DNA from: Promethearchaeota archaeon
GTDB lineage: Archaea; Asgardarchaeota; Thorarchaeia; Thorarchaeales; Thorarchaeaceae
Length of the DNA stretch: 64,000 nt
Assembly: GCA_014728035.1 (NCBI GenBank)
Contig: WJMJ01000148.1
Coordinates: forward strand, 85,228-149,227
Direction: 5' to 3'
The notes under the pieces were generated by a model. It was not told the origin of the DNA. It searched no databases and was given only the letters and a program-made list of their open reading frames with translations. Shown in pieces: positions 30,086-60,346 of the stretch (its first letter is position 1; the number at the start of each line of letters is the position of its first letter). The position numbers were made by a program, and so were the translations under genes.

Positions 30086-31480
30086 TTAACCTGTAACTGA
30101 GAATCCATCAATTACCATAGTTGGCAGGAACACACCATTTGTGGTCAATTCAACATCAGACCCAACATGGAGAATGTTCTTAAAGCCCTCATAGAAATTG
30201 CCTGCAACAGATACTGGCTTCAAAGGAGTAACGATTTCACCATCTTCCACGAGAAAGACTGAGTTGGCGACACAGGAAAATTCACCTGTTGCTACAGATG
30301 AGTGAAATATCCCAATAGGACTCTCTGTGATGTATATGGCTTTTCCATCGATTGCTCCAAAGATTTCTTCTTTGCTCTTGGAACCAGGAGAAACTGAAAT
30401 AGTCTTCACACTAACACCAGGAGTTTGCTCATAAGGAGTTGCACCACCAAACAATCCCTGAGACCGTTCACAGTTACCAGTTGACCCGATACCAAATATC
30501 TTGCCATAGTATGTATCAAACAAGTGTGTCTTCAGAACGCCACTTTCGACAATGACATTCTTTTGCTGTGGAAGTCCTTCATGGTCTACCGCACTTGTTC
30601 CCCAACCATCAGGTTTCTGACCATCATCGACCAAAGTGAACTCCTTCGATGCGATTGTATCACCAATCATATCACAAAGTGGAGAAATACCCTCAACAAT
30701 AAAACGACCTGTTGATGCAGTAGCGATACTCGGAATAATATACGAGTCTCCAGCTCTTGGACCCCATATCGTTGGCAACGATTCAGTCATATCCAAGGCT
30801 TTAGCACCATGTTGTTCAGTTGCTCGTTTCACGGCTAACTCGCCAAGACCTTCAATATCGAATAAACGGTCTCTTGCTCCATCAAAGCCAAATCCAGTCT
30901 TTCTCTCTTCACCTTCAATAGACATCACATATCCATAGCCATAGTTGAATCCACCACGTGAAGCTGCAGCAATTCCTCTACTACTGATTATGGCATAACC
31001 ACCCCAGCCAGTATTCGATTGTCCCGAAAATACCTTTACGCGTTCATCGATACCTTGAGCATCCTCAATAATCTGTTGAGTCTTTTCAATCAATTCATCA
31101 ATGCTAACGGACAAAATATCTTTTGAGAACAATCCGTCTTTTCCAGCAGGTTTTGGATCAGCAAATCCGACCCAACGTTCATCCTCTGAGCTGGTCTTCT
31201 CAACAATGCTTTTTGCTTCTTTGATACTGAATTTTACTCGATCTAATGAAATCCCACTCGCAGAGGCAAAGCCAACCTTTTTACCTTTTGAAACTCGTAC
31301 AGCATTTCCTGTTGTAGCTCCATCGTTAGCAGATACAATACCCTGCTGGATTGAAACACTCTGAGTGTTTTGGTAAAACAGGAATATTTCGTATTCCATT
31401 GCAGAATCGAGTGATTCAGCATGTTTTAATGCAGTGTCTCCAATAGCAAGCAATTCATCATTAATTGTTTCATATTTCAT
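30086..31480 (-). CDS. pmbA: PmbA/TldE family protein
   Basis: DHEG..QQKNVIVESGVL, STGNC, TGEFS, GNFYE; coupled to tldD. Confidence 0.88.
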   Translation of the reverse strand: MKYETINDELLAIGDTALKHAESLDSAMEYEIFLFYQNTQSVSIQQGIVSANDGATTGNAVRVSKGKKVGFASASGISLDRVKFSIKEAKSIVEKTSSEDERWVGFADPKPAGKDGLFSKDILSVSIDELIEKTQQIIEDAQGIDERVKVFSGQSNTGWGGYAIISSRGIAAASRGGFNYGYGYVMSIEGEERKTGFGFDGARDRLFDIEGLGELAVKRATEQHGAKALDMTESLPTIWGPRAGDSYIIPSIATASTGRFIVEGISPLCDMIGDTIASKEFTLVDDGQKPDGWGTSAVDHEGLPQQKNVIVESGVLKTHLFDTYYGKIFGIGSTGNCERSQGLFGGATPYEQTPGVSVKTISVSPGSKSKEEIFGAIDGKAIYITESPIGIFHSSVATGEFSCVANSVFLVEDGEIVTPLKPVSVAGNFYEGFKNILHVGSDVELTTNGVFLPTMVIDGFSVTG

Positions 31481-32901
31481 TATGCTTTCCCTCCAAAAGT
31501 TACATCCTTCACAAGTAATTTTGGCCCGCCCAATCCTGTCGGTAATGGAAACTGACCACCTTTACCACAACCACCAAAGTATCCACTTTTTATTACTAGT
31601 CTATCTGTTGCTCCATATACATTGTTAAGCAATTCTAGAATGTTCCCAGATAGGGCAACCTCCCGAAGTGGGTGTTGAATCTCACCATTTTCTACCCAAT
31701 AGCCTCGAATAGCTTTGAACAGAAAACTACCATCTCCTTGCACTTGGCCACCAGTTGTCTGTATTGCATAGACACCTGTTCCAAGTTCTTCAAGCGCTTC
31801 TTCTTCATTAGAAATTTCACCTGGAGCAAAATAGGTGTTCGTCATTCTACATATTGGTGGGTAAATGAATTGAACAGCTCTGGCATTGCCGGACGGTTTC
31901 TGGCCGAGTTTCTGAGCAGTCCCTCGATTATGTAGATAATGTTTCAGAATTCCTTTGTTTAAAATGACTGTGTCACTACCTGCAATTCCTTGATCATCAT
32001 AAGGCATCCAGAGTCCACCATATTTTGTCAAGTCTGGTACTCCATTATCATGAATGGTAGCATGTTCACTACCAATTCGCTCTCCAATCTTACCTGAAAG
32101 AGGAGAACTACCGGTTACAACAAAATCAGCTTCACTGAGGTGTCCGAAAGACTCGTGTGCTAATACACCAACAAGAGATTCTTCGATTAAGGTTGAGAAT
32201 TTGCCAGCAGGACATGCTTTTGCTGTTAATTGTTCCTTAGCTCGGACTGCTGCTTCTTTACCAAATCCTTCTGGTACGTCTCCAGCATATGCTTCTAATC
32301 CAACTGTACCCCCATATCGTTCGGTACCATAGACCATAGCTCCTGAATCGGTCTTTGAAGTTACAGTCACTCTAAGCTCAGTAGTTAGAAAGTCCCAATC
32401 TATCTCAGAATGATCAGAATTGTAGAGCATCTTTTTACCATACAATTCACCATACAATCCTCGGATGTTACGAACACTCTCGCCATGTTCTTGAGCAGTT
32501 TCGACGCAACGATTGACTAGGTCAGTTTTGTGTGCGATATCATATTCATCAGGATGCATCTTTACACTAGGAGTTTCGGTTGACTTGCTTCTAATCGCAT
32601 CACCTTTTTCAAAAGGCAGCTTCAACATAGCAACAGCAGCAGAGGTCTTAGCCATTTTGAATGCCTTTTCTGTTGCCGTCATTATTGCATCTTTATCATC
32701 GCTTGCACTGAACGAGAATCCAGAAACACCCTCAACGTATGCTGTGATGCCAAATCCTTTTCTGGATTTTACAAGTATACTTTTCCATGTGTCATCAGTT
32801 CGTTCAAGAGTACGAAGCGTGAGATTATCAAATCTTGCTTCTACAAAATCTGCTCCGAGTTTCTCTCCGAATGAAACACATTCCTTTAGTTTTTCCATCA
32901 T
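31480..32901 (-). CDS. tldD: TldD family metalloprotease
   Basis: HESFGHLSEAD, YDDQG, RMTNTY, CGKGGQ. Confidence 0.92.
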   Translation of the reverse strand: MMEKLKECVSFGEKLGADFVEARFDNLTLRTLERTDDTWKSILVKSRKGFGITAYVEGVSGFSFSASDDKDAIMTATEKAFKMAKTSAAVAMLKLPFEKGDAIRSKSTETPSVKMHPDEYDIAHKTDLVNRCVETAQEHGESVRNIRGLYGELYGKKMLYNSDHSEIDWDFLTTELRVTVTSKTDSGAMVYGTERYGGTVGLEAYAGDVPEGFGKEAAVRAKEQLTAKACPAGKFSTLIEESLVGVLAHESFGHLSEADFVVTGSSPLSGKIGERIGSEHATIHDNGVPDLTKYGGLWMPYDDQGIAGSDTVILNKGILKHYLHNRGTAQKLGQKPSGNARAVQFIYPPICRMTNTYFAPGEISNEEEALEELGTGVYAIQTTGGQVQGDGSFLFKAIRGYWVENGEIQHPLREVALSGNILELLNNVYGATDRLVIKSGYFGGCGKGGQFPLPTGLGGPKLLVKDVTFGGKA

Positions 32902-33202
32902 ATTTGTTCTCTCTTAGTTCTTCTAACTGAAAGTAATATGGTCAGTCTGTATAATGATTCTGAGACTTAGTGACCATATATCAAATCACTTTTCAAATAT
33001 TTTTTACAATATATGAATAGTTCTTCTAGTTGTTCTGAGTAACGATATCAATGATAAATTAGCAGATATAAGAGCTAGTCACAAAATAGGCTCACATGTT
33101 GTTACTATATGGAGAGAGCAAAATCCAAGATATCTACAAGTTGTTCTTTACTAAACGGATTAATACATTTTGATGAGCCAAATCCAGAAATGCATGATCG
33201 CA

Positions 33203-33763
33203 TTATGGTTCCATCGATTCTCTTTCAGTAGGTGTCTTGAAAAGCTTTTCAACAACTAATCGTGCCATTTTTGCAAAAGCCTCATTGACATTCTTGTCTA
33301 ATCGAACGCTCATCTCAATGTACTCTCCATTGAACTTTTCTGCTACTTCCTTTCCCTCCTCAGTGGAAACAACACGTTCCATCACAAGATCTACCTTGTT
33401 TGCAACTAGGAGTGGTACATAATTATCAAGGTTCTTATCCACTTCAGCTTTCCAGTCAAGAATATCATTCAAACTTTCCCACTGAGTTACGTCAAAAAGG
33501 AACATTACACCTGAAGCGCCATTATAGTAATTTGCACGAACACGTTCTAGAAAATCTTGTGAGCCCATGTCCCATATCTGCAGGTTGACGTAGGTATCCT
33601 TGTCTAATCTAATCTTTTTGAAGGCAAAACCAGTACCAAGAGTTGGAGAGTAATGCTCCCTAAAAGCACCAGTAGAATAACGAACAATCATAGAAGTCTT
33701 CCCTACTGACGCGCTTCCTACGGTTACAATCTTCAATAAATAAGTCGGGCTCATTAATAACAC
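33203..33763 (-). CDS. Rab-like small GTPase with divergent G3/G5 motifs
   Basis: GSASVGKT, PTLG, WDMGSQ, NKVD, MSVR; no prenylation motif. Confidence 0.9.
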   Translation of the reverse strand: MLLMSPTYLLKIVTVGSASVGKTSMIVRYSTGAFREHYSPTLGTGFAFKKIRLDKDTYVNLQIWDMGSQDFLERVRANYYNGASGVMFLFDVTQWESLNDILDWKAEVDKNLDNYVPLLVANKVDLVMERVVSTEEGKEVAEKFNGEYIEMSVRLDKNVNEAFAKMARLVVEKLFKTPTERESMEP

Positions 33764-33824
33764 CTCATTGAGTACAAATGTGTTTGGAATCCTAAATAAC
33801 CATTACTTGGACATCTAATGAATT

Positions 33825-34622
33825 TCATATGATTTGCAATCCTAATTGTCTTCCTAGTACAATAACAGTGAGACAAGCAGCAGGACTAAGGTTAGCGTAT
33901 CCTTCAATAAAGCGATTTAATTGAACCTCGTCTAATCTCTGGATATTCTCAATGCTATAATCATTACCAAGCGAGAAGGATGAACATGCACACAAGCCTG
34001 CGACTGACGTTGGTCCATATGTACTAATTGCTCGTAGTACTAGTCGGTATACTAAACCAATGAGCTCGTGTTTATCACCAGATAATTTTACACAATCGAA
34101 AAACGTCCCATCCTGAAACTTCTTATCTTGCGTCATTAATTCTAACCAAAACGCAAATTCCTCAAAACCAATGAAGTCCTTAGAGGAATATCTTGGAAAG
34201 AGAACTTGATTATAGTTATTAACTAGATGTAAAGAGAATCTTGGCAAATCTTCATTGTCAAGCTTCATGACAAAACGGGCCATTAATTTTGTCCATTCTC
34301 CAAAAACCCAATGAACCGAAGTTGTCTGTGTAGGGTAAATTTTTGAAGCATCTATACAAACTGACCATTGATTATTTTTGCATTGGATATGCTCCAGAAT
34401 CAATTCCAACTCAGGATCCTCAGCCAACTTTGTCATTATATTATCAACAATATCACTGGAATAGACCATTTCAGCAACACGCAAAATAATTTCAAAGGCC
34501 TCCCGAACCATGAGAATACGCCTCGACTCGCCTGAGAGCGCATCTATTGTTTCTTGATCGGATGCATTTTGAAGTAGCTTGATAGAGCCTTTCTTTTCAC
34601 CCAAGTTATCGAGTTTTGCCAA
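33825..34622 (-). CDS. Hypothetical protein; stand-alone paralogue of the C-terminal half of 34738-36345
   Basis: GGTGA RBS and TTG start; shared RRIL, GEWTKL, RYxSxDFxGxEEFxFWLEL motifs. Confidence 0.75.
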   Translation of the reverse strand: MAKLDNLGEKKGSIKLLQNASDQETIDALSGESRRILMVREAFEIILRVAEMVYSSDIVDNIMTKLAEDPELELILEHIQCKNNQWSVCIDASKIYPTQTTSVHWVFGEWTKLMARFVMKLDNEDLPRFSLHLVNNYNQVLFPRYSSKDFIGFEEFAFWLELMTQDKKFQDGTFFDCVKLSGDKHELIGLVYRLVLRAISTYGPTSVAGLCACSSFSLGNDYSIENIQRLDEVQLNRFIEGYANLSPAACLTVIVLGRQLGLQII

Positions 34623-34737
34623 ATAATCACCAGTGTGTTGTTTCTTGTGATACTTCTTTTTAATATCACGGATTTCAAGTAATTACACTAGATTATAACA
34701 GATATCCATATAGAAATGTTACTTGTTGGCATTATGA

Positions 34738-36345
34738 TTAGATTATCTTTCTAGAGCCATTCTTTTTTGACCGTAACACTTCTGGTACTTGGATGCCTCT
34801 CTGTTTCGCTAAGATGAGAATAGAAAGACGAGACGCTGGTCCTAATTTTGAATAATTAATAATGAAAGTTTCAAGAGTCTGCTCGCTATACTGTTCCATC
34901 CATTTTGCAGAGAGGTCATTACCAAAAGCAATGCCAGACGCAGTACAAATATCTTTGATACGTTCTTCTCCATAAATCGATTTTCCCCGTAACAAAAGAA
35001 TGTACGCTAAATCAAGAGCTGTTTTCCGTCCGGAATCCGCAATACTCCCAGCTCTTGTCGTAATTGGTCTATGCCATTTGTCAATTGTAAGGAGCTCTAA
35101 CCAAAAGGAAAATTCTTCCATGCCACGAAAATCAAGACTGGTATATCGATCAAATAGAAATGTGGTAAATGACGAAATTATTCGTTCAATAAAAACCTCA
35201 AGTTTTCTTGAATCAAACGCTTCGATATATTGTGCAACGAGCTTAGTCCACTCACCATACACAAGCATCATCTTGTTAATTGGAAGGTTTATGTAAACAT
35301 CCGGATGAAAATCAATTGTCCATCGCTTAGCAAAATATCTAATCTGGCCTACAACTTCAGGTGAAGCTGTCTTATTTAATACTGATTTTATTGCAGCTCC
35401 AGCTTCAAGATGAGAATAGACTTGTTCGGAAATGCGTAGTAAGACTTCCAATACCTCTTTAGCTAACAAGATTCTACGCATCTCAGGGCCTAGAACAAGA
35501 ATTGCATCTTTATCCATTAGATAGTCCAGAGCTTTGTAAATATCGGTTTCATCGAACTGATCTCTAAGAAGATGGATAATATCACCGACACTTCTACGTC
35601 CGTCAATAAATCCTCGAATTCGTGGTATTATTGGTAGTAGTCGCGGATAATGATTCTTTAGTGCTTTATAATCCTGAGACGATGATCGCTGATACTCGAT
35701 ATATCGACTTCTAACAGAAATATAATCTCCCGGACCAAGCATATTTTTGAAACGAATTGCTCGAAATGCCCATAACTTTGACATTTCTAACAGTAGAGCC
35801 TTTTCTGTCACCCCTCCTTCAATCTTAATACGTTCTATTGTTCGTGTTCCATCAATGAGGTCAGTAACTGCATTTCTATGAGCATCTCCAAGAATGATAC
35901 CTGGCAGAAAGTAAGGAACCCATTTTCCAGGTAGTTCTTGGAAAGCTAATTTTTGCATCACGCGTTCTCCAAATGCTTGCAAATAGATTTCTACAAAAGA
36001 AGAGTCTAGGTCATGAGGTGCTGCAGACGCTAACCATTCAAGTTCAAACTCCGCAAGTAGTGAAGTAAGTATCTGTGGAATCTCAGGTAGTATTGGTCCG
36101 TAACTTATAGCTATTAGATTCGTTTGTACTCCCGTGATGACTGTGAATACCCTAGCTCCGTAATCAATATTGAACTTGGGTACTCTGGTTTCTAATACTT
36201 CTTTAGAAAACATGTCAATCGCTGCAAAGAAACTAGATGCCAACATAGGATCCATTTCCTTTGAACGGGGATCTAACTGCATGAAGAATCGAGGCATTCC
36301 ATTTCGGTCCATAATGAGAATGGCCTCTATATTATGGCGTACCAC
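34738..36345 (-). CDS. Longin-domain protein with two winged-helix repeats (NPRL2-like) and an uncharacterised C-terminal domain
   Basis: AILIMDRNGMPRF...DPMLASSFFAAIDMFSKE longin; VPYF...IDGTRTIERI and IDGRRSVGDI wHTH repeats. Confidence 0.7.
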   Translation of the reverse strand: MVRHNIEAILIMDRNGMPRFFMQLDPRSKEMDPMLASSFFAAIDMFSKEVLETRVPKFNIDYGARVFTVITGVQTNLIAISYGPILPEIPQILTSLLAEFELEWLASAAPHDLDSSFVEIYLQAFGERVMQKLAFQELPGKWVPYFLPGIILGDAHRNAVTDLIDGTRTIERIKIEGGVTEKALLLEMSKLWAFRAIRFKNMLGPGDYISVRSRYIEYQRSSSQDYKALKNHYPRLLPIIPRIRGFIDGRRSVGDIIHLLRDQFDETDIYKALDYLMDKDAILVLGPEMRRILLAKEVLEVLLRISEQVYSHLEAGAAIKSVLNKTASPEVVGQIRYFAKRWTIDFHPDVYINLPINKMMLVYGEWTKLVAQYIEAFDSRKLEVFIERIISSFTTFLFDRYTSLDFRGMEEFSFWLELLTIDKWHRPITTRAGSIADSGRKTALDLAYILLLRGKSIYGEERIKDICTASGIAFGNDLSAKWMEQYSEQTLETFIINYSKLGPASRLSILILAKQRGIQVPEVLRSKKNGSRKII

Positions 36346-36409
36346 TGCAAGGTCCTCACTATCCTCGTGAGTGTTTTATAATATTAGCATTGTTGGGGGA
36401 TAGTAATAA

Positions 36410-36587
36410 GAAAAACAAGCTAGCGGCAGGTACAAAGACCTGCCAGACTAACTAAAAACTTCGGTTTTTCCCATGAATTGTGTGCTGGCGATGCACGAAC
36501 TATGCGTCATAGTTTAATGTTCTTTGTGACGTCTGGAGAACGTCGTCGATGCGTTCGTTCTAGATCTTTGCTAATCACTGCCAGCAA
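36410..36587 (-). ncRNA. Candidate structured small RNA (or short-ORF mRNA)
   Basis: About 46% GC intergenic block with several stems, an upstream TATA-like ATTATAAT (36610-36617) and a terminal hairpin with T-run. Confidence 0.45.
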
Positions 36588-36634
36588 ATAATAGCATATC
36601 ATATATCATATTATAATGTTTTGGCTATGGACAT

Positions 36635-37195
36635 TTATTTCTTGCCAGGTAACTTTGGGTGAACGGGGGGATAAGTAGCATAGAGTGACCTAGCTATCCT
36701 TAGAAAAATGTCTTTAACATTAAAGCCTGTCTTTGCCGAAGTCTCATAGAATGGGAAGCCATGAGAATCAGCATAGTTTCTACCAATTGCGGGAATGACC
36801 TCACGTTGATGAGTCATGTCTGCTTTATTTCCAAGAACAATGCAAGGAAGAGTTCTCCCGTCAACAGTCTTGATACTCTCAGTTAGTCCTTCTAGCCAAT
36901 AAGGAATATTCTCAAATGATTCCATAGAGGTTATATCATACACAAGTATAGCGTAATGAGCACCTTTGTAATACTTCGTTCTGAGCTCGTCAAAAGATGC
37001 TTGACCACCTAAATCAATCACTGTGAGGATAACTGGAGTAAACGTATCAATATTCAAGGCAATAGCACTAAGGTCTACTCCAACCGTAGCAGTATAATCT
37101 TCATCAAATTCACCTAACAATAATTGACGAATTAACGAGCTCTTACCTACTGAAGCATCTCCAACAAGCAATACTTTGTATGCTGCAACCGCCAA
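36635..37195 (-). CDS. Rab-like small GTPase
   Basis: GDASVGKS, ATVGVD, DLGGQ, YYKGA, NKAD, ETSAK; probable TTG start at 37195 after a GGAG RBS. Confidence 0.92.
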   Translation of the reverse strand: MAVAAYKVLLVGDASVGKSSLIRQLLLGEFDEDYTATVGVDLSAIALNIDTFTPVILTVIDLGGQASFDELRTKYYKGAHYAILVYDITSMESFENIPYWLEGLTESIKTVDGRTLPCIVLGNKADMTHQREVIPAIGRNYADSHGFPFYETSAKTGFNVKDIFLRIARSLYATYPPVHPKLPGKK

Positions 37196-37369
37196 CGTGG
37201 TATCTCCTTGAGTATATCTAACTCTTATCGATAAATCCTTTACAAATGTGAATAATACAACACGTACAAATAAGGTCATTTCGTCTTCTTCTAAAAGATA
37301 TTAGCTCCATTCTTCTATAATGAACCGTGAGAAGGAAAAGACTATCTAGCTAAAACCGAGTTAGTAATT

Positions 37370-38260
37370 GTGATTATAGTGCTCAATTATGAGGGAAGTA
37401 TCTGGAGACCTCCCAGTGAAGCAAGAAGTCTTATTCTTCAAGCCACAGTGGGATGTTCCCATAATGCTTGTACATTTTGTATTTCTTACAAAAAGAAGAA
37501 ATACCGAGTTAGAGGTGTTGAGGGTATCAAAGAAGATCTCTCCAAAATACCAAATAGCTATCTTCATAGAGTACGTAGAGTTTTTCTTGCAGATGGCAAT
37601 GCTTTAGCTGTAGATGTAGACGAGATGCAATTAATTCTTGCAGAGTTAAATAAATCAATCCCGAATCTTGAACGAGTTGGAACCTATGCATATGCAAAAG
37701 ATGTTGATGGAAAAACTGTTGAAGATCTAAAAGACTTGAAAAAAGCAGGTCTTGGAATTGTATACTTAGGTCTCGAAACTGGTGATGACCAGCTACTTGA
37801 ATGGGTGAGAAAAGGATTAGATTCTAAGAAAAATATTGATTCATGTCTTATGGTTAGAAAAGCTGGTATTCCTCTATCCCTAACCATCATTCTGGGTCTA
37901 GGAGGACTTGAACTTTCTGAACGACATGCAAAAGCTACAGCCGAAGTTCTAAACAAGATTGACCCTGAATATGTAGGAGCACTTACACTCATGATTCCGG
38001 AAGGAACTCCTCTCCATTCAATTACGCAACGTGGAGAGTTCAAACCAATGTCCCCTAGTCAGATTCTTTCAGAAATGAAAATTCTCGTTCAACACCTTAA
38101 TCTCACCGAGTGCATCTTTAGAACAAATCATGCTTCAAATTACCTTCCTGTGAGAGGAACACTAAATCGAGATAAACAATTGATTCTGGATCAAATCACA
38201 GCAGCTCTAAATCAAGGTGAATCAGCACATCTAAGAACTGAATACATGAGAGGCTTGTAG
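37370..38260 (+). CDS. Radical SAM protein
   Basis: RPPSEARS, CSHNACTFC, FLADGNAL, GLETG, NHASNY. Confidence 0.9.
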   Translation: MIIVLNYEGSIWRPPSEARSLILQATVGCSHNACTFCISYKKKKYRVRGVEGIKEDLSKIPNSYLHRVRRVFLADGNALAVDVDEMQLILAELNKSIPNLERVGTYAYAKDVDGKTVEDLKDLKKAGLGIVYLGLETGDDQLLEWVRKGLDSKKNIDSCLMVRKAGIPLSLTIILGLGGLELSERHAKATAEVLNKIDPEYVGALTLMIPEGTPLHSITQRGEFKPMSPSQILSEMKILVQHLNLTECIFRTNHASNYLPVRGTLNRDKQLILDQITAALNQGESAHLRTEYMRGL

Positions 38261-38329
38261 ATAAATAACAACAAAAGCCATATCAATCATGGTGCTTATA
38301 ATAGGGATAAACTTACGGAAGGGAAATCC

Positions 38330-40843
38330 ATGGTAATTCAAGTACTACTTGTAGATGATGATTCGGATTTTCTAGAACTTACAAAAACTAATCTGGAAAA
38401 AATTTCTTCGGATCTTGAAATAACTACATGTACTACTGTTGATATTGGATTGGAACTTGTGCATTCGCAATATTTTGATTGTGTAGTGTCGGATTTCCAG
38501 ATGCCCGAAAAGGACGGCCTTGAATTCTTACAAGAATTGAGAGAGAAAGATATCAAAATCCCTTTCATAATCTTTACTGGACGAAGCAGAGAAGAAGTTG
38601 CCATCAAAGCACTAAATTTAGGAGCTTCTCAATATTTAACAAAAGGTGCTGATATCAAGAGTCAATTTCATCAATTGGAACATTCCATTAAACAATTAGT
38701 CCAACATAAAAGAACTGAGGAAAAATATGCAAAGCGAGAAGAAGAACTACATGAGTTTCTGAACAACACGCATATCGGGATAGAAATTATTGCTGAGGAG
38801 TCTAGTACTATTCTCTATGCTAATCATGGGATGGAAATTATCACTGGATATTCCCCTTCAGAATTAATAGAATTAACATTTGAAGAGCAAATAAAAATTA
38901 TACATCCTGAAGATAGAGAATTTCTTAGGAAAACAATCTTACAGCGAACCAAGGGTGAAAAGTCTCCGCCATATTACGAGATAAGATTAATACGAAAAAA
39001 CGAAGAAACAATCTGGGTTGCTATTACAACAATTCCAATTCAGTACAAGGGAAAATCAGCAATTCAGGTTGTGTTTCTAGATATTTCTCAACAAACATCA
39101 GGACAAGTTACTAGAACCAAAACAAAAGACAGAGTGATACTTGAAAAAATTAAAACTGGACTTTACATCTACGAACTTCGTGATGACGATCAGCTTGTCT
39201 TAATTGATGGAAATAATGCTGCCGGAGATATTACAGGAATATATCCTTCAGAATTCTTGGATGAGGAATTTCGTGAGATATGGCCAGAAACTGAAGAAGT
39301 TGGATTCTATCAGGCTATGATTAACGTGGTTAAAACTCACGAACCATATGAATCAGAGAGTTATGATTATCAGGACAATAGGGTTCAGGGATGCTATCGT
39401 ATTTTTGCATTTTATATACCACCTAAAATTCTCTGTGTTAGCTTCACAGATGTTACAGATCTGAAACAAATTCAAGAAGAATTGGAGAAAAATGAACGTA
39501 TTCTCGAAGCATTGTTTAAGATAACTAAACATCTCAACGAAACCTGTTTTTCCTTTACTGAACGAATGGAGAATGTTATTGAAAAGATAACTAAATCATT
39601 GCCAGAATATATGAATCCATCTTTGGAAATTACAATTGATTCTCAGAAATGGGGTAATTCTACAGAAGCCATGGAATGCATTCAGCAGTATCCAATCAAA
39701 ATTTTTGAAAAAGTAAGAGGAAATATGTCTCTTCATATCCCAAGAAAAATTGTTTCTGAAGTATCCCTATCAGAAGAAGATGATTCTATGCTCAAAACTA
39801 TCGTTGAACAGATAGGACAAACTCTTGCAAAACAAGAAACTAGAGCGGCTTTAGCTGAAGGAGAGAGAAAATACAGAACAGTTGTACAATCCATGGCAGA
39901 TTTGGTTCTTGTATTTGACAGTGAAAACAGACATCTTGAATATTTTCCGACAGACTCTGAATTAATCTTAACCGAACCAGAAGAATTTCTTGGTAAAACA
40001 ATCAGTGAAGTATTACCTGAGGAAATTGCCAAGGAATATGAGACCCGAGTTAAGCAAGCACGTGAAGGAAGAAAAAATATTGACTTCGAGTATTACTCAA
40101 TTAATCGAAGAGGGAAGGGAAGGTGGTTTCATGCGCTATTTACAAAACATGAGATAGAGGGTCAAGTACTCGTAGTAGTTAGAGAGATTAGCGAGAGAAA
40201 GAAACAAGAACAACTCGTTAAGAAACAGAAAACTGAACTAAGTAAGTTTGCTCATAGAATGCGGCATGATATAGTTGGAGTATTAAGTAATATCTATGGA
40301 TTTTTGGAGCTAATACGAAATGGTGAGATCGAACACATTGATTCTATCGAAAGATTAGTTGGTAGGTCGGAAAAGATACTTGAAAAATCGATAATTCTGG
40401 CAGATGCGGGGTTAATAATTGGGGAGAAAGAAGAAGTAGATTTTGAAACACTTATCAAGGATATAGCTAGTGAAGTTGTTCCGAAAACGATTCATGTTGA
40501 AGTAGAATGCATACCACATGTATATGGAGACCAAGAGAAATTAGCTCAAGTTACAATAAATATTTTGAGAAATGCTGTAACACATGGAGAACCATCCAGA
40601 ATATTCATCTTTCAAGAAATAGTAGATGGAAGACATGTTATCCGCTTTTGCAATGATGGAAAAGAGATACCCCCTCAAGAAATTATCAGGATTAAGGAGT
40701 TTGAAACAGCTTCGAAGCTACATGGAATAGGCCTTACAATCGTACAACGCATAATCGAAGCTCACAGATGGCAAATTACAATCTCAAGTTCAGAGGACAC
40801 CTGTTTCAGCATATGGATTCCTAATCAAGATATCGTAACATGA
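38330..40843 (+). CDS. Hybrid receiver-PAS histidine kinase
   Basis: VLLVDDD/SDFQMP/TK receiver; PAS motifs (IHPEDR, DVTD); RMRHDI H-box; NAVTHG, NDG, GIGL. Confidence 0.88.
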   Translation: MVIQVLLVDDDSDFLELTKTNLEKISSDLEITTCTTVDIGLELVHSQYFDCVVSDFQMPEKDGLEFLQELREKDIKIPFIIFTGRSREEVAIKALNLGASQYLTKGADIKSQFHQLEHSIKQLVQHKRTEEKYAKREEELHEFLNNTHIGIEIIAEESSTILYANHGMEIITGYSPSELIELTFEEQIKIIHPEDREFLRKTILQRTKGEKSPPYYEIRLIRKNEETIWVAITTIPIQYKGKSAIQVVFLDISQQTSGQVTRTKTKDRVILEKIKTGLYIYELRDDDQLVLIDGNNAAGDITGIYPSEFLDEEFREIWPETEEVGFYQAMINVVKTHEPYESESYDYQDNRVQGCYRIFAFYIPPKILCVSFTDVTDLKQIQEELEKNERILEALFKITKHLNETCFSFTERMENVIEKITKSLPEYMNPSLEITIDSQKWGNSTEAMECIQQYPIKIFEKVRGNMSLHIPRKIVSEVSLSEEDDSMLKTIVEQIGQTLAKQETRAALAEGERKYRTVVQSMADLVLVFDSENRHLEYFPTDSELILTEPEEFLGKTISEVLPEEIAKEYETRVKQAREGRKNIDFEYYSINRRGKGRWFHALFTKHEIEGQVLVVVREISERKKQEQLVKKQKTELSKFAHRMRHDIVGVLSNIYGFLELIRNGEIEHIDSIERLVGRSEKILEKSIILADAGLIIGEKEEVDFETLIKDIASEVVPKTIHVEVECIPHVYGDQEKLAQVTINILRNAVTHGEPSRIFIFQEIVDGRHVIRFCNDGKEIPPQEIIRIKEFETASKLHGIGLTIVQRIIEAHRWQITISSSEDTCFSIWIPNQDIVT

Positions 40844-55645: not shown

Positions 55646-55680
55646 TGTGGGTTTTATCCCACACCAATTCTATTTTATTC
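55646..55680. terminator. Hairpin between convergent genes
   Basis: TGTGGG-ttttat-CCCACA. Confidence 0.5.
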
Positions 55681-56227
55681 CATACTCATCAACAAGATTC
55701 AGAAAGGTCGAGTCTAAGGTATCCATTCCTACTCCGGTTTTAGCGGAAATCAAATGGGTGGTCATTCCATATTCATTAGCAACTTCGATCATCTCATCAC
55801 CAATCTGGTCGATTTTATCTCCATCTATAAGATCAATTTTATTTCCTACCAAAATGAAGCGTTTTCCATCCCCACTATCGAAATTCAGATTGCTATTTTC
55901 ATTGACTGCTGGAATCCAATAAGTGAACAAATTATCAAATGTCTGCATTTTACTTACATCAAAGAAAAGGAGGCCAATTTTTGCACCACGTATCATTGTT
56001 TTCATCTGATCTGCAAATCGTTTTTGGCCACCAAAGTCCCATATTGATAGTGTGCATTCAGTACCACTGGGAAGCTCCACCTTCTTAGTATCAAAACTTG
56101 CACCGATTGTAGTGCGTAGCATATCTGGATCAGGAAAATTACCAGTTGTATAGCGTTGGGTAAAAGATGTCTTCCCGCACTCTGTATCACCCAACACTGC
56201 TACTTTTACAATCGCCATTTGATTCAA
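55670..56227 (-). CDS. Rab-like small GTPase
   Basis: GDTECGKT, TTIG, WDFGGQ, NKID, ISAKTG. Confidence 0.92.
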   Translation of the reverse strand: MNQMAIVKVAVLGDTECGKTSFTQRYTTGNFPDPDMLRTTIGASFDTKKVELPSGTECTLSIWDFGGQKRFADQMKTMIRGAKIGLLFFDVSKMQTFDNLFTYWIPAVNENSNLNFDSGDGKRFILVGNKIDLIDGDKIDQIGDEMIEVANEYGMTTHLISAKTGVGMDTLDSTFLNLVDEYGIK

Positions 56228-56230
56228 TCC

Positions 56231-57607
56231 TCACGAAGACTGTTGACTGGACGTTCCTCTTAGAGTAGATATAATTTTTGCAAATGGAGGGCTAACACCG
56301 ATTGCTGCCGCAGCTGCTACACCCAATAGGATTAACGCTAGTTCAAATTGAAAATCTTCTACGTACATTGCAGATAAAGCTGCTAATAGCGCAGAAATAA
56401 CAAAGAGAACAAATCTTGATGCTGCTCTTCCAGCTCCAATCTTATACAGTCTCCACGAAGTTCGAATGAAAAGAACTATAGACCATATCAAAAATGGACC
56501 TAGAAGAATCCAGAGATCTCCTGCAACCCATCTACCGTCTGCAACTTCAGGTATTGCTAGAATTGTTATGAATGTGCAAAATGAGATTATTATCTCCCTA
56601 GTAACTGAGTATCCCCTCTCACCAAGTGCAGTAGATGCTGCAGCTAAAGTGATTCCTGTTAGTCCGAAACAACCGAGAAGTACGTCAAACCAAATCATAT
56701 AGCGATTGAATACTTCATTTTGTGAGATATAGACAGCCCATGAAAGGGAATGAGTAAACAATAACAACGAAATGGAACCAAGAACAAGAGCAATATATTT
56801 TGGTACTCTTGCTTCAGTTCTAGTTAGTTCGCCGAGGAAAAAGTCCAATGGTGCTAAAATACACAATCCCGTTATGAGACATGCCAGTACAAAACTCCAG
56901 ATTACATAAGTTCCAAAACTCAGAGCAACTATAATCAATGGAATACATATTGTAAGTCCGGTTCCAAATAATAAAATGGTAATCATTGTTCTTGGGGGTT
57001 TCCTAATTGATCCAAATATTGCTGCTCCTACAATCAGCGGTGCGTTTACAAAGATGTAATATTCAGGATTACTCCAGACAAAACCTGTACTAGCAAGCCA
57101 CCATGTCATAATATACATCAACAGTAACAGAGTTAGTGAGCCGGTAAATATAGTGGGATTCTCTTTAAGCAGTGTCAGAGCAAAGAAGAATGTTGCAATT
57201 AAGAACAATGCGAGAATGGGAGCAAAAAGAATGAGAATGCTAGTACCAGTAAAAAGTCGTTGAATATTCTCAAAAATCACTGGAACGATCAGAAAAGCAG
57301 TTATGATAGTTCCATTTCTTGCACGATTGCCTTCTTGAAAGAGAATATTCATCTGAGCAATGAGAACAAATCCTAGGAATAACGCATTAAAACCAGTAAT
57401 GATGAAACGAAGTGGCTCCATCATTCCCGCAAGTACGGAGAGTGTCACAAATATTCCTGCGATTCCAAATGCGGTCAATGCTCTTTGTGTATAGATCGTA
57501 AGTGTACCGTAAATCTCTCTGATTCTTTTTACATATATCAAGAGAGAGAAAGAAATGATAATACTTACAACCAGTCCGCTAATATTCATAGCAAGTGTGT
57601 AATCCAT
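56231..57607 (-). CDS. About 15-TM membrane protein (copy B), putative double-7TM receptor
   Basis: 15 hydrophobic segments counted by eye; paralogue of 58291-59661. Confidence 0.75.
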   Translation of the reverse strand: MDYTLAMNISGLVVSIIISFSLLIYVKRIREIYGTLTIYTQRALTAFGIAGIFVTLSVLAGMMEPLRFIITGFNALFLGFVLIAQMNILFQEGNRARNGTIITAFLIVPVIFENIQRLFTGTSILILFAPILALFLIATFFFALTLLKENPTIFTGSLTLLLLMYIMTWWLASTGFVWSNPEYYIFVNAPLIVGAAIFGSIRKPPRTMITILLFGTGLTICIPLIIVALSFGTYVIWSFVLACLITGLCILAPLDFFLGELTRTEARVPKYIALVLGSISLLLFTHSLSWAVYISQNEVFNRYMIWFDVLLGCFGLTGITLAAASTALGERGYSVTREIIISFCTFITILAIPEVADGRWVAGDLWILLGPFLIWSIVLFIRTSWRLYKIGAGRAASRFVLFVISALLAALSAMYVEDFQFELALILLGVAAAAAIGVSPPFAKIISTLRGTSSQQSS

Positions 57608-57613
57608 TTTGTA

Positions 57614-57991
57614 TCAACCCCATAAATCAGATATTTCGCGTCCGCGTTTATCAGCGACTTTTTGAATTCGTTTTGCAATCTCTTCTTTCGATGCTTCCGG
57701 TTTATTTGTAATGGAGGTCAAACTGTCAGCCACTTCATTCTCATTATCAGCTTCAGCTATGTAGACATAATCCCCCAAGGTGACATATCCGACAACACCA
57801 CGATCCGATTTCATAAAATGGTGTTTACCTTCCGAAAGACTTGCTGGGTCATCACGTTCAAGAGCTGCAGAAACGAGCTGTACAATACCCATCAACAAAG
57901 CAACTCGTTCATCCTTTTGCTCATCAATGGGATATAATACTTGAGAGCTCATATCGTCCAATTTTACTTTTGCTACCAGTCTGATGACCAT
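57614..57991 (-). CDS. Longin-fold protein (copy B)
   Basis: Beta-beta-alpha-beta-beta-beta-alpha-alpha pattern; C-terminus KRGREISDLWG. Confidence 0.65.
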   Translation of the reverse strand: MVIRLVAKVKLDDMSSQVLYPIDEQKDERVALLMGIVQLVSAALERDDPASLSEGKHHFMKSDRGVVGYVTLGDYVYIAEADNENEVADSLTSITNKPEASKEEIAKRIQKVADKRGREISDLWG

Positions 57992-58284
57992 TAGTCACCA
58001 CCCCCAAAAGCATCAGTTAACCAATCAAGCTCTTTAGACCCAGTTCGCTTCTTGGGTTCTTCTTTCTTTTTCATTGGAACAACAACGTCTCGAACCCCGA
58101 GACCTTTACCTCCACGTTGGTTATAGAGGGTGACCAGCAGTTCATGCCCATTTTCGCAATTTGCTATCATAGTTGGTGAGCGACCCTCATCCTTAATTCT
58201 CTGTTTAATAGATTCAGCTTCTTCATCTGAAAGTTTGATGGTAGTCTGACCTTGACACTCTGGACATTTGAATGTGATATCCAT
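57991..58284 (-). CDS. Small zinc-binding protein (copy B)
   Basis: FKCPEC...CENGH; C-terminus ELDWLTDAFG. Confidence 0.75.
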   Translation of the reverse strand: MDITFKCPECQGQTTIKLSDEEAESIKQRIKDEGRSPTMIANCENGHELLVTLYNQRGGKGLGVRDVVVPMKKKEEPKKRTGSKELDWLTDAFGGGD

Positions 58285-58290
58285 GATTTA

Positions 58291-59661
58291 TCAGCTCCCT
58301 TCCTTTTGTGATGATGTGCGTCTTGAAATAAACCGAATAACGGGTGGACTATTTGCCAATGATAGAATGACTGAAAATGCTAATAGTGCTAAGACAATTC
58401 CAAATGGAAAATTATCTGAAAACATAGAAACAATTCCAACTGCCAATGCAGATGTTATGAATAAGATAAATCTGAAAGCAGCTGTACCTGCCCCAAGTCG
58501 TGCTATTCGAATGGATGTTCTGATGAATAACAACATTCCAGCAGCAATTCCGAATCCAATAAAGAGCCATAGTACTTCTTGTTCATAGCGACCACCAATT
58601 ACATCAGGAAATGCAAAACATACAATAGCAGATCCATATATGTTTAGGAATTCCCTTGAGTAGGAATATGCTGTATTTCCAAAGTTCATCACTACACCAG
58701 CAAGAACGAAAGCTCCAACTGCAAACATTCCCAACACTACATCAAACCACACAAAATATTGATTCCATGCACCTTCGGATTGGTAGATAGAAAATGATAA
58801 TGCGTGAGTCATAATCATTAGAGAAAGTGCGCCAATGACTAATGCAATATATCGAGGTGCTTTCGTTCCCGTTTCTTGTGCTTGCTGAATGAAATAGTTT
58901 AGAGGGATGATCATCGCTAAACCTGATAGTATTGCAGCTTGCGAATAGAGTGTAATGATGGTTTCACCGGACTGGAACGAAACTATGACTAGTGATGAAC
59001 CAATTGTGAATGCAGTGAGGATTAGAAAAATCGTTAACATTGTTCTAACTGGTTTTCTTATAGATGCAAATATTGAAGCTCCCAGCAACAATGGTAAAGC
59101 ATTGATTATGAAAAATTCGGGATTGACGAACAACCATCCAGATGCTGACACTAGCCATGCAACAACAAAGACCAATTCTAGAACTAGAAAAGAAACCGAG
59201 AATACTGTCGGATTTTCACGAACAAGTACAATCGAAGATATAATTCCCCCACCAAGGAAAAACAGTAAAGTCACCATTAGAATTCCAATTGTGGGAGGTA
59301 AAACAAACCTGAGGTAAGCACTGATAGCAACCGATGATGCCATTAGTAGTATAATGATAATTTTGAGATAATTAGCTAATTTCTTATTTGGATAAAGAAT
59401 ATTGATCTGAGTAAGAAATAGCAATCCAAGAAAGATGGCGCTATTACCCATTACCAGATGAGTCATCGTAGAGTGAACAGCAAAGAATGGTACAAAAGCC
59501 ATGGAGATTCCTGCAGCACCATATGTCATCAGAGCTCGACGTGTATTGGGAGTGATTTCTGTGATGATTTCTCTAATGTTTCTCCCGTAAATTACAATAG
59601 AAAACAATGTTGCCGCAAAGGTTACCAATCCTGAAATAAAGATAGTCTGTGAAAAATCCAT
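58291..59661 (-). CDS. About 15-TM membrane protein (copy A), putative double-7TM receptor
   Basis: Shares IREI, ENPT, NPE, SIRKPxRTM, YIALV, THxLS, WFDV, FIRTS, SPP with copy B. Confidence 0.75.
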   Translation of the reverse strand: MDFSQTIFISGLVTFAATLFSIVIYGRNIREIITEITPNTRRALMTYGAAGISMAFVPFFAVHSTMTHLVMGNSAIFLGLLFLTQINILYPNKKLANYLKIIIILLMASSVAISAYLRFVLPPTIGILMVTLLFFLGGGIISSIVLVRENPTVFSVSFLVLELVFVVAWLVSASGWLFVNPEFFIINALPLLLGASIFASIRKPVRTMLTIFLILTAFTIGSSLVIVSFQSGETIITLYSQAAILSGLAMIIPLNYFIQQAQETGTKAPRYIALVIGALSLMIMTHALSFSIYQSEGAWNQYFVWFDVVLGMFAVGAFVLAGVVMNFGNTAYSYSREFLNIYGSAIVCFAFPDVIGGRYEQEVLWLFIGFGIAAGMLLFIRTSIRIARLGAGTAAFRFILFITSALAVGIVSMFSDNFPFGIVLALLAFSVILSLANSPPVIRFISRRTSSQKEGS

Positions 59662-59671
59662 TATTACACCT

Positions 59672-60049
59672 CTAACCCCATAAATCTGAAATTTCCCTGC
59701 CTCTTTTGCTTGCTACTTTCTCGATTCGTGTTGTCAATTCTTCAGTAGAAGCATCTGGTTCTTTTGCTACAGAACGAACACATTCACCAGCTTCATTTTC
59801 ATTATCAGCTTCACAAATGAAAAGTGTACCACCAACCTGAGAATATGATATGACGCCTCGATCGCTTTTCATAAAATGTGGCTGATCTGAAGGTATCTCC
59901 TGAATATCATCTCTTTCAAGTGCTGCTGAAACCAATTGTACAATTCCAGTAAGAAGCGCAATACGTTCAGCTTTTTCTTCACCTACTGGATAAAGTACTG
60001 TCGAAGACATATCATCAAGAGCTACTTTTACAACTAAACGAATTACCAA
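59672..60049 (-). CDS. Longin-fold protein (copy A)
   Basis: Paralogue of 57614-57991; GAGGAGG RBS and TTG start. Confidence 0.65.
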   Translation of the reverse strand: MVIRLVVKVALDDMSSTVLYPVGEEKAERIALLTGIVQLVSAALERDDIQEIPSDQPHFMKSDRGVISYSQVGGTLFICEADNENEAGECVRSVAKEPDASTEELTTRIEKVASKRGREISDLWG

Positions 60050-60061
60050 GCTTTATCCTCC

Positions 60062-60346
60062 TCATCCAAAAGCGTCTGTGAGCCAGTCTAGCTCACTTGA
60101 ACCTGTTTTCGATTCCTTTTTCTTTTCTTTCTGCATTGGTACGACAACATCTCGTACCCCGAGACCTTTACCTCCACGTTGATTGTATAAGGTAACGAGT
60201 AATTCATGATTGTTCTCACACCTAACAATCATCGTGGGACTACGACCTTCTTTAGAGATTCTCTCCTTAACCTCAGCAGCCTCTTCATCGGTCATTTCTA
60301 TAAGAGCTGAACCGTCACAGGCTGGACATTTGAATACTAGTTTCAT
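60062..60346 (-). CDS. Small zinc-binding protein (copy A)
   Basis: FKCPAC...CENNH; paralogue of 57991-58284. Confidence 0.75.
   Translation of the reverse strand: MKLVFKCPACDGSALIEMTDEEAAEVKERISKEGRSPTMIVRCENNHELLVTLYNQRGGKGLGVRDVVVPMQKEKKKESKTGSSELDWLTDAFG

Follow-up and report, generated by a model that had tools for sequence, protein, structure and literature searches.

An NPRL2-like longin and winged-helix protein of Thorarchaeota and its neighboring Rab-like GTPase

The locus and its two GTPases

The window analyzed here is a 64,000-nt stretch of contig WJMJ01000148.1 from a member of the Thorarchaeota, and all positions are given in window numbering. Four genes on the minus strand encode, from upstream to downstream, a small GTPase (GTPase A, 36635..37279), a 535-aa protein (34738..36345), a 265-aa protein (33825..34622) and a second small GTPase (GTPase B, 33203..33763). 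An earlier note on this DNA had described these four genes with a GTPase at either end, and we found all four open reading frames at the coordinates it gave; both terminal products match Pfam Ras (3.6e-43 for GTPase A and 4e-41 for GTPase B). A response-regulator-PAS-kinase gene adjoins the operon.

GTPase A and the gene for the 535-aa protein are separated by a 289-bp spacer (36346..36634, minus strand). It contains a TATA-like sequence, TTATAAAA, about 35-40 nt ahead of the GTG start of the 535-aa gene, and blocks that can form stems. The spacer is single copy in the genome and has an RNA fold z-score of -2.37. It is 81% identical to its equivalent in the locus L081, and the differences spare the stems and fall in the loops. 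A search of Rfam with the spacer gave no match, and the equivalent spacers of two related loci, L082 and L083, are only 66-105 bp long. The conserved stem-forming blocks might be a non-coding RNA or a leader.

Both GTPases consist of a single G domain (186-214 aa as annotated). Their top sequence matches in the PDB are the Thorarchaeota Rab 7ezb, Rab1, Rab3 and Rab8, and Gtr1_RagA stays below the Pfam cut-off. Judged by sequence, both are thus Rab-like, as the earlier note proposed, and not Rag GTPases. A prenylatable C-terminal cysteine motif is absent from both; GTPase A has a basic tail with no C-terminal cysteine. The closest solved relatives of GTPase A are Rab1A/B (~6e-31), and its motifs are canonical (GDASVGKS, DLGGQ, NKAD and SAK). 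Although annotated as 214 aa, it probably starts at the TTG at 37195, giving about 186 aa, because its orthologs are 187-202 aa long and conservation begins at LAVAAYKV. GTPase B, annotated as 186 aa, probably starts at the ATG at 33754, since its orthologs begin with MSPxYLL, and its closest solved relative is 7ezb (9e-38). Whereas GTPase A keeps the canonical G3 motif of the Rab family, GTPase B departs from it (DMGSQ rather than DxxGQ). Among the 61 orthologs compared, WD[LM]GSQ is invariant; G5 (SVR) is also non-canonical. Gln69 and all of the nucleotide-binding motifs are retained in GTPase B.

An NPRL2-like protein with a lineage-specific C-terminal module

The 535-aa protein has an N-terminal longin domain (residues ~3-137), two winged helices (~143-211 and ~224-284), a helical domain (287-420) and a C-terminal piece (~440-520). 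In its AlphaFold2 model (pLDDT 77, pTM 0.74), residues 3-137 have the topology beta-beta-alpha-beta-beta-beta-alpha-alpha and match the longins of adaptin sigma/mu, TRAPP, Sec22b, VAMP7 and Fuzzy with VIA Z scores of 10-12, bearing out the N-terminal longin that the earlier note had recognized from its sequence pattern. When the whole model was compared with the PDB using Foldseek, the best 13 matches were all GATOR1/SEACIT chains (E 3.5e-6 to 1.9e-3), and NPRL2/NPRL3 (Npr2/Npr3) gave the best multi-domain structural matches. MglB was also among the structural matches.

Tandem PqqD-type winged helices are a defining feature of NPRL2/NPRL3. The 535-aa protein shares with these proteins the order of a longin domain followed by two winged helices with a VPxF...IDGxR...I motif. 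The motifs that the earlier note read from this protein (WVPYF, LIDGTRTIERI, LWAFRAIRF, FIDGRRSVGDI and LMDKDAILV) are all found in its translation, and those it gave for NPRL2 (DVPVF, YIDGFRHIQKI and LLYYGVVTL) are all in the human protein, where HMMER aligns them to the archaeal ones. In an hmmsearch of PDB sequences, a broad family profile (A2) found human NPRL2 with an E-value of 3.1e-11, aligning profile positions 134-280 to human residues 170-329, and yeast Npr2 with 1e-4. Comparison of A2 with a vertebrate NPRL2 alignment by hhalign gave 92.3% probability and an E-value of 5.4e-7, with query positions 138-286 aligned to NPRL2 169-327; this alignment covers the winged helices only. A profile made from the longin domain found nothing in the PDB, so that the longin alone has no sequence affinity to that of NPRL2, and it is the paired winged helices and the domain architecture as a whole that tie the protein specifically to NPRL2. 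On the profile alignments, we consider the winged-helix pair homologous to residues 170-329 of human NPRL2, and the longin and tandem winged helices proposed in the earlier note hold up.

The family nevertheless differs from NPRL2/NPRL3 in falling below the Pfam NPR2 thresholds. The 535-aa protein has no Pfam match, NPR2 (PF06218) has none in the genome, and none of 42 family members has an NPR2 or NPR3 match above the curated threshold. Sub-threshold matches among these 42 are to PqqD (15/42), HTH_NPRL3 (4/42, best 0.0063) and NPR2 (1/42, E 0.23).

The 535-aa gene product is thus a member of a Thorarchaeota NPRL2-like family with a longin domain, PqqD-type tandem winged helices and a helical C-terminal module. 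The family comprises 112 clusters and 78 genomic loci, nearly all of them labelled Thorarchaeota. The available part of a preprint by Liu et al. (2020, bioRxiv 10.1101/2020.10.19.343400) describes an Asgard NPRL2-like family in Thorarchaeota, placed in the asCOG category "NPRL2-like longin domain", which combines a longin with an NPRL2-specific domain and is present in most Thorarchaeota genomes. The two families are very probably the same, matched by description and phyletic spread rather than by asCOG accession. That part of the preprint's text makes no mention of a downstream Rab-like GTPase, of fused and split forms, of the C-terminal module or of a missing arginine finger.

Unlike NPRL2, the Thorarchaeota protein carries an extra C-terminal module, which is helical, about 250 aa long and lineage-specific, and matches no solved fold. 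The 265-aa protein is a stand-alone paralog of this module: by BLASTP it aligns to residues 271-520 only of the 535-aa protein (34% identity, E 3e-44). Its AlphaFold2 model (pLDDT 82, pTM 0.81) is mostly helical with one beta-hairpin, and searches with the 265-aa protein and the module found no fold match among solved structures or in the Atlas. The 265-aa gene is present in two genomes only, those of the window and of L081, and the free copy of the module added there may pair or compete with the fused one.

Conserved linkage and co-duplication with GTPase B

The earlier note suggested that the 535-aa protein acts on the two GTPases and that the linkage should be sought in other Thorarchaeia. 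This held for GTPase B and largely failed for the other genes. Among the 71 Thorarchaeota loci with enough downstream sequence, 57 have a GTPase B-like gene on the same strand within 300 bp downstream (median gap 75 bp), typically 60-100 bp from the regulator, and of the 22 split-form loci, 10 lack an adjoining GTPase. With only ~30 Ras-family genes in the 4.3 Mb of the window's genome, chance adjacency would be expected about 1% of the time. GTPase A falls in a clade separate from that of GTPase B. The only other loci with a GTPase A ortholog ahead of the NPRL2-like gene are L081, L082 and L083, which form a four-member subclade with the window, and the 265-aa gene is confined to the two genomes named above.

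The linked GTPases (66 sequences) form one clade with SH-aLRT support of 100, apart from the 20 other Rab/Ras-like GTPases of the genome. Within this clade, GTPases next to fused regulators (n=49, support 96) are separated from those next to split regulators (n=17, support 82). The regulators divide likewise in their own tree, where the fused forms are one clade with support of 100. Because the GTPase clade splits as the regulators do, we conclude from these sequence trees that the regulator and GTPase B were duplicated as a unit. Fused and split pairs co-occur in at least 8 metagenome-assembled genomes. GTPase B orthologs are 62-72% identical, versus 40-46% for the regulators.

Gene order could be kept for other reasons, such as shared regulation only, with the two proteins working in separate processes, and archaeal operons can indeed join functionally loose genes. 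However, the genes have stayed adjacent even though sequence identity has fallen to 35-45% and the pair has duplicated, and the GTPase tree mirrors that of the regulators. Conserved adjacency with mirrored trees is hard to explain otherwise than by functional coupling, and we regard separate processes as very improbable.

Linkage to a GTPase is not found across the whole family. More distant members lie beside response regulators and PAS/histidine-kinase (two-component) genes with no GTPase, and regulating a GTPase may therefore not be a role common to the whole family. These neighborhoods, together with the response-regulator-PAS-kinase gene beside the window's operon, would suit a GTPase-controlled adaptor in transcription or signalling, in which the winged helices bind DNA or peptide, the longin senses the state of the GTPase, and the protein is an effector. 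The winged-helix region of distant relatives has sub-threshold HTH_47, TrmB and MarR matches, HTH_47 or TrmB is found on about 50% of the members in the closest Atlas clusters, and the winged helices resemble PqqD peptide-binding domains. However, known longin-GTPase pairs, as in TRAPP, Mon1-Ccz1, DENN, FLCN and GATOR1, are of the regulator-substrate type. Moreover, the winged helices are specifically NPRL2-like, and the NPRL2 data point to protein contacts, not DNA: NPRL2 contacts DEPDC5 through its TINI domain, and a large contact surface is formed between the C-terminal domains of NPRL2 and NPRL3 (review, PMC8534245). An effector role for the 535-aa protein therefore seems unlikely to us.

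Possible modes of regulation

The earlier note read the locus as a GATOR1-like GAP. Such a GAP would insert an arginine finger of its longin domain into one or both Rab-like GTPases, as NPRL2 does with Arg78 for RagA. Arg78 lies on a longin loop (PMC8534245) and is invariant in vertebrate NPRL2 sequences. The note itself could locate no equivalent, correctly: among 108 Thorarchaeota homologs, no arginine in residues 1-140 is invariant. R65 (79% of the 108) is replaced by His in 23/108, and the beta3-beta4 turn that carries it is at the other end of the sheet. The beta4-beta5 turn, which corresponds to the position of Arg78 as judged from secondary structure rather than residue-level superposition, is a short, Arg-free Gly turn in 61/61 superfamily members.

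Some features do favor such a GAP, in addition to the NPRL2 homology by profile, hhalign and Foldseek. A G-x-P motif in the beta1-beta2 loop (strands 6-13 and 18-23) runs through the superfamily, with G16 conserved to at least 90% and P18 found in most sequences; the vertebrate NPRL2 G20-P21 is at the same position, with one residue more in Thorarchaeota. A GP motif at the end of this loop has been reported for GAP-type longins (PMC12290439), and the archaeal sequence resembles it. R19 usually directly follows G-x-P in the fused clade and is found in 58 of the 108 sequences (54%), but the split clade has Leu at this position and some sequences have Lys. Gln69 and the nucleotide-binding motifs are retained in GTPase B, as noted above, but the partner GTPases are not Rags, and DEPDC5/Iml1 (PF12257) has no match in the window's genome (97.9% complete), which is weak evidence, as control genomes could not give a match either. 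Since the longin domain has no conserved arginine, a catalytic mechanism of the GATOR1 type is unlikely on sequence grounds, and we doubt that the protein is a true GATOR1-like GAP.

Based on homology, domain layout, conserved adjacency and co-duplication, we think it reasonably likely that the 535-aa protein and GTPase B are a dedicated pair, the former being a longin-platform regulator of the latter. The G-x-P motif of the longin loop fits this reading as well. We postulate that GTPase B docks on the longin domain, probably a dimer as in other longin/roadblock platforms, and that this domain sets the nucleotide state of the GTPase. With no arginine finger, it could do so by promoting exchange, in the manner of the longin Rab-GEFs, or as a GAP of the MglB type, by reorienting the Gln of the GTPase itself. 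Assembly or signal input might be the task of the winged helices and C-terminal module. The subclade of the window has gained a second Rab-like GTPase (GTPase A).

Known systems resemble this proposed pair in different respects. As with NPRL2/NPRL3, a small GTPase is the presumed target of the 535-aa protein, and the two are encoded together; in contrast to GATOR1, that GTPase has a Rab-like G domain without the C-terminal roadblock domain of Rags, and the regulator lacks an Arg78-type finger and has G-x-P instead of GP in its longin loop. The longin Rab-GEFs (TRAPP core, Mon1-Ccz1, Fuzzy-Inturned and DENN) also use a longin platform on Rab-type GTPases with no arginine finger. However, the archaeal protein lacks a tri-longin or DENN architecture, its post-longin part is NPRL2-like, and no sequence relationship to these GEFs was detected. 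In MglB-MglA, regulator and GTPase are side by side and a roadblock/longin-type platform works without a catalytic arginine, although MglB consists of one roadblock domain and MglA, which is not Rab-like, carries an intrinsic arginine. Lastly, the available text of Liu et al. (bioRxiv 10.1101/2020.10.19.343400) reports a conserved Asgard operon of a LAMTOR1-like protein, a Rab-like GTPase and a DENN protein. There, too, a Rab-like, non-Rag GTPase is joined to eukaryote-like regulators of the mTORC1 branch, but these are roadblock and DENN proteins rather than a longin with NPRL2 winged helices, and the phyletic spread is wider.

We also consider a more speculative, and on balance improbable, view of the operon as a surviving prokaryotic module of the GATOR1 type. 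A longin platform of the NPRL2 family would regulate a Rab-like GTPase of its own with no arginine finger involved, duplicated pairs would form hetero-oligomers foreshadowing NPRL2/NPRL3 and RagA/RagC, and the C-terminal module would serve as a new domain for assembly or sensing. If so, the arginine finger and Rag specificity would be later eukaryotic additions.

The small GTPases and the longin or roadblock proteins of Asgard archaea number in the dozens, and which regulator serves which GTPase is mostly obscure. Genome layout rarely helps to pair them (Tran et al. 2024, PMC10933270). Although the protein family itself is already published, its tight, co-duplicated pairing with a GTPase offers a testable couple in a close relative of eukaryotes, and the conserved adjacency of an NPRL2-family protein and a Rab-like GTPase points to a concrete cognate pair. 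Such a pair bears on whether the GATOR1-type longin module began as a GAP, a GEF or a scaffold, on whether the arginine finger might be a eukaryotic innovation, and on the pre-eukaryotic rise of GTPase circuits for nutrient signalling and membrane trafficking.

A four-gene locus encoding an NPRL2-related protein

Four co-oriented ORFs occupy the minus strand at the coordinates that the earlier note had assigned to them: GTPase A (36635-37279; 214 aa; Pfam Ras, E 3.6e-43), an NPRL2-like protein of 535 aa (34738-36345), a 265-aa protein related to the C-terminal module of the NPRL2-like one (33825-34622), and GTPase B (33203-33763; 186 aa; Pfam Ras, E 4e-41). Every peptide string quoted in that note is present in the translations, and the NPRL2 motifs that it gives are accurate. 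A search for sequencing runs over 33203-37279 listed none, RNA data included. The closest solved relative of GTPase B is the crystallised 'Thorarchaeota Rab' 7ezb (E 9e-38), and that of GTPase A is Rab1A (E 6e-31). The annotated N-termini of both GTPases are probably too long; comparison with orthologs suggests starts at the ATG at 33754 for GTPase B and at the TTG at 37195 for GTPase A.

The family of the 535-aa protein comprises 112 sequence clusters; almost all come from Thorarchaeota MAGs, and none has an annotation beyond 'hypothetical'. In Pfam and NCBIfam scans, neither the 535-aa nor the 265-aa protein had a match above threshold, and a weak NCBIfam match to PqqD corresponds to the second winged helix of the 535-aa protein. 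An AF2 model of this protein (42 homologs in the alignment; pLDDT 77, pTM 0.74) contains a longin domain (residues 3-137), two winged helices (residues ~143-211 and ~224-284), a helical domain (residues 287-420) and a less confident C-terminal piece (residues ~440-520). In a Foldseek search of the PDB with this model, the 13 best matches were all GATOR1 or SEACIT chains (E 3.5e-6 to 1.9e-3; 336-486 aligned columns), with low TM-scores that indicate a different arrangement of the domains. Rigid-body re-alignment recovered a generic longin fold, with Z of 10-12 to adaptin sigma/mu, TRAPP, Sec22b, VAMP7, Fuzzy and MglB.

Sequence profiles point to the same kinship. The best match of the close-family profile among PDB sequences is human NPRL2, at an E value of just 0.012. 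A broader profile, which adds distant Asgard members from an exhaustive search, matches human NPRL2 with E 3.1e-11 across both winged helices (NPRL2 170-329) and yeast Npr2 with E 1e-4, and hhalign against an NPRL2 alignment of vertebrate sequences only gave 92.3% probability over the same winged-helix region. A longin-only profile found nothing significant among PDB sequences and did not recover the NPRL2 longin; neither this profile nor hhalign against vertebrate NPRL2 linked the longin of the family to that of NPRL2. At the level of sequence, homology of the 535-aa protein to the NPRL2-specific region that follows the longin domain is established. A 2020 preprint by Liu et al. (bioRxiv 10.1101/2020.10.19.343400) describes a Thorarchaeota family with a longin domain and an NPRL2-specific domain, and 'NPRL2-like longin domain' is a standard category of Asgard ESPs. 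Thus, the central identification was already known, and the gene described here is a new member.

Upstream of the NPRL2-like gene, a 289-bp spacer (36346-36634, minus strand) separates it from GTPase A. The spacer is 81% identical to its equivalent at L081, one of three loci (L081, L082 and L083) that share the subclade of the window's locus, and its stem arms are perfectly conserved (e.g., TGCTGGC/GCCAGCA and GGCAGGT/ACCTGCC) with variable loops between them. Its fold z-score is modest (-2.37), its sequence is single-copy in the window's genome, and the same interval in L082 and L083 is just 66-105 bp. An Rfam scan of 33000-37500 gave no match. The spacer may represent a small RNA or a structured leader, or be no more than a promoter region.

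The C-terminal module, paralogs and distant relatives

The C-terminal module is an addition relative to NPRL2, since NPRL2 ends ~50 residues past its second winged helix. In many relatives the last ~110 residues are encoded by an ORF of their own (the split form, as opposed to the fused form of the window). The 265-aa protein is paralogous to residues 271-520 of the 535-aa one (34% identity, E 3e-44), and the free gene occurs only in the window and at L081. Its AF2 model (pLDDT 82, pTM 0.81) consists of helices and a single hairpin. The best PDB match by Foldseek had an E value of 0.31, and the best of 48,161 chains compared by VIA-align reached a Z of 5.8, which is noise level; TM values in a shape search of the ESM Atlas did not exceed 0.29, nor did scores in an Atlas feature search exceed 0.83. 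As modeled, the module has no convincing fold match in the PDB or the ESM Atlas, which does not in itself prove a new fold. In one split-form clade (L069-L073 and L084), which is without an adjacent GTPase, another gene lies between the main gene and the ~108-aa C-terminal piece; at L084 this gene belongs to the Lactamase_B family. Several MAGs of this clade are labelled Heimdallarchaeota or Bathyarchaeia, and their proteins group with the Thorarchaeota ones.

The NPRL2-like gene of the window has no relative above 51% identity in species-representative genomes and one at 82% elsewhere (P0002, at L081). The window's own assembly contains at least six full-length NPRL2-like paralogs, at sites that include C44:183160-184383, C141:11946-14090 and contigs C84, C166 and C61. 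The assembly is rated 8.5% contaminated, and some of these contigs may therefore derive from a second Thorarchaeota organism. The C141 paralog is a split form (~415 aa and ~110 aa); after it comes a GTPase B-like gene (56% identity) that is nearly identical to the GTPase of L065 (SHMX01000006.1, Thorarchaeota isolate BC). The C44 paralog is also split, with its C-terminal piece ~850 bp off and no GTPase in view. The window itself has a second longin-plus-GTPase cluster on the minus strand (55670-60346), with ORFs of 94, 125, 456, 97, 125 and 458 aa and then a 185-aa Ras-family GTPase (55670-56227, minus strand; E 5e-27).

Distant family members (~410 aa) occur in MAGs of Thor, Hodarchaeales and Heimdallarchaeaceae, where they adjoin two-component genes, not GTPases. 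For example, the 423-aa distant member P0189 is embedded in a series of response-regulator, PAS and HATPase genes (L085:2036-5979). These neighbours fit the link between NPRL2-like longins and two-component signalling reported by Liu et al. (bioRxiv 10.1101/2020.10.19.343400).

Linkage and co-duplication with GTPase B

We surveyed 78 Thorarchaeota loci, 71 of which have a complete gene and at least 650 bp downstream. A GTPase B-like gene lies within 300 bp on the same strand in 57 of the 71 (median gap 75 bp), including 45/49 fused and 12/22 split forms; a further four split forms have one 1.3-3.5 kb downstream. With ~30 Ras-family genes in the window's 4.3-Mb genome, this adjacency greatly exceeds the chance expectation. 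In a tree that took in other Rab/Ras-like GTPases of that genome, all 66 linked GTPases fall in one clade (SH-aLRT 100), which splits into neighbours of fused regulators (support 96) and neighbours of split regulators (support 82). The tree of the regulators divides likewise: the fused forms are monophyletic (support 100), and among them the window's group is sister to the remaining 43. Both types of pair occur together in at least eight MAGs and in the window's own assembly. The mirrored trees indicate that the pair was duplicated as a unit and stayed together. Judged from sequence comparison, co-duplication with continued adjacency is the strongest available evidence for functional coupling, and together with the excess adjacency it makes it very improbable that gene order is conserved here without interaction. 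Complex prediction from the alignments of the 535-aa protein and GTPase B, run without controls, scored 0.12 and 0.18, short of the mark of 0.32, and is evidence neither way.

Conservation is unusually high among GTPase B orthologs (62-72% identity, versus 40-46% for the regulator). They keep the P-loop, the switch I Thr, Gln69 and NKxD, and have an invariant, non-canonical G3 (WD[LM]GSQ; DMGSQ in GTPase B itself) and SVR at G5. The earlier note had two GTPases bracketing the NPRL2-like gene. Both are present and both belong to the Ras superfamily, but the bracketing is a feature of the window's subclade, since GTPase A orthologs lie upstream of the regulator only in L081, L082 and L083. They form a clade separate from GTPase B, and at ~33% identity GTPase A is ruled out as a recent duplicate of GTPase B. 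Beyond the four genes, the locus is flanked by a TldD/PmbA pair and an M32 peptidase gene on one side (30086-32901) and by genes for a radical-SAM protein and a response-regulator-PAS-histidine-kinase on the other (37370-40843). All of these are present at L081, and the TldD/PmbA pair, the M32 peptidase and the radical-SAM gene at L082; none was seen at L083, and they are thus probably not part of the module.

Departures from GATOR1 and possible modes of action

NPRL2 is defined catalytically by Arg78, which sits on a longin loop (PMC8534245) and does not vary among vertebrate NPRL2 sequences. Across 108 Thor homologs, the longin domain has no invariant arginine, although a helix with E99-F100-E101 and W104 is invariant. 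R19 is found in 54% and is Leu in the split clade. R65, found in 79%, is ruled out as an arginine finger because it is His in the other 21% and sits in the beta3-beta4 turn. By secondary structure, rather than residue-level superposition, the position equivalent to Arg78 should be the beta4-beta5 turn, which in each of the 61 superfamily members inspected is a Gly turn of two or three residues that lacks Arg. Unlike the Rag GTPases of GATOR1 signalling, the partner GTPases are Rab-like. A search of the window's genome for PF12257 (IML1/DEPDC5) found no match, which is weak evidence, and one for PF06218 (NPR2) found none either. By descent and domain layout the locus is therefore related to NPRL2, but it does not qualify as a GATOR1-type arginine-finger GAP acting on Rag, and we consider it unlikely that the 535-aa protein is a true arginine-finger GAP. 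A GAP role of some kind stays alive because of a conserved G-x-P (G16 and P18) in the beta1-beta2 loop, which recalls the GP motif found only in GAP-type longins (PMC12290439).

We think it rather probable that the 535-aa protein serves the Rab-like GTPase B as its dedicated regulator, acting as a longin platform and with no arginine finger. The established longin regulators of Rabs (TRAPP, Mon1-Ccz1, Fuzzy-Inturned and DENN) act as exchange factors, and the roadblock protein MglB is a GAP that contributes no catalytic residue. Action on GTPase B by an exchange mode or by an MglB-like GAP mode would both fit, and we slightly favour exchange or platform activity over GAP. The PqqD-type winged helices would probably mediate assembly or input; an adaptor or transcription factor that uses them under control of the GTPase seems improbable to us. 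Within GATOR1, DEPDC5 is contacted by the TINI domain of NPRL2, and a large contact surface is built by the C-terminal domains of NPRL2 and NPRL3 (PMC8534245). The C-terminal module of the 535-aa protein would probably have a similar role in assembly or input, and the free 265-aa copy may pair with the fused module or compete for it.

In the searchable literature we found no report that the family is paired, conservedly and with joint duplication, with a Rab-like GTPase clade of its own, nor of the unusual G3 motif of GTPase B, the fused and split forms, the extra C-terminal module, or the family-wide lack of an arginine finger; Liu et al. may already have recorded the GTPase neighbour. Tran et al. 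2024 (PMC10933270) note that Asgard genomes generally lack operon pairings of this kind, which makes the pair of regulator and GTPase B useful for experiment.
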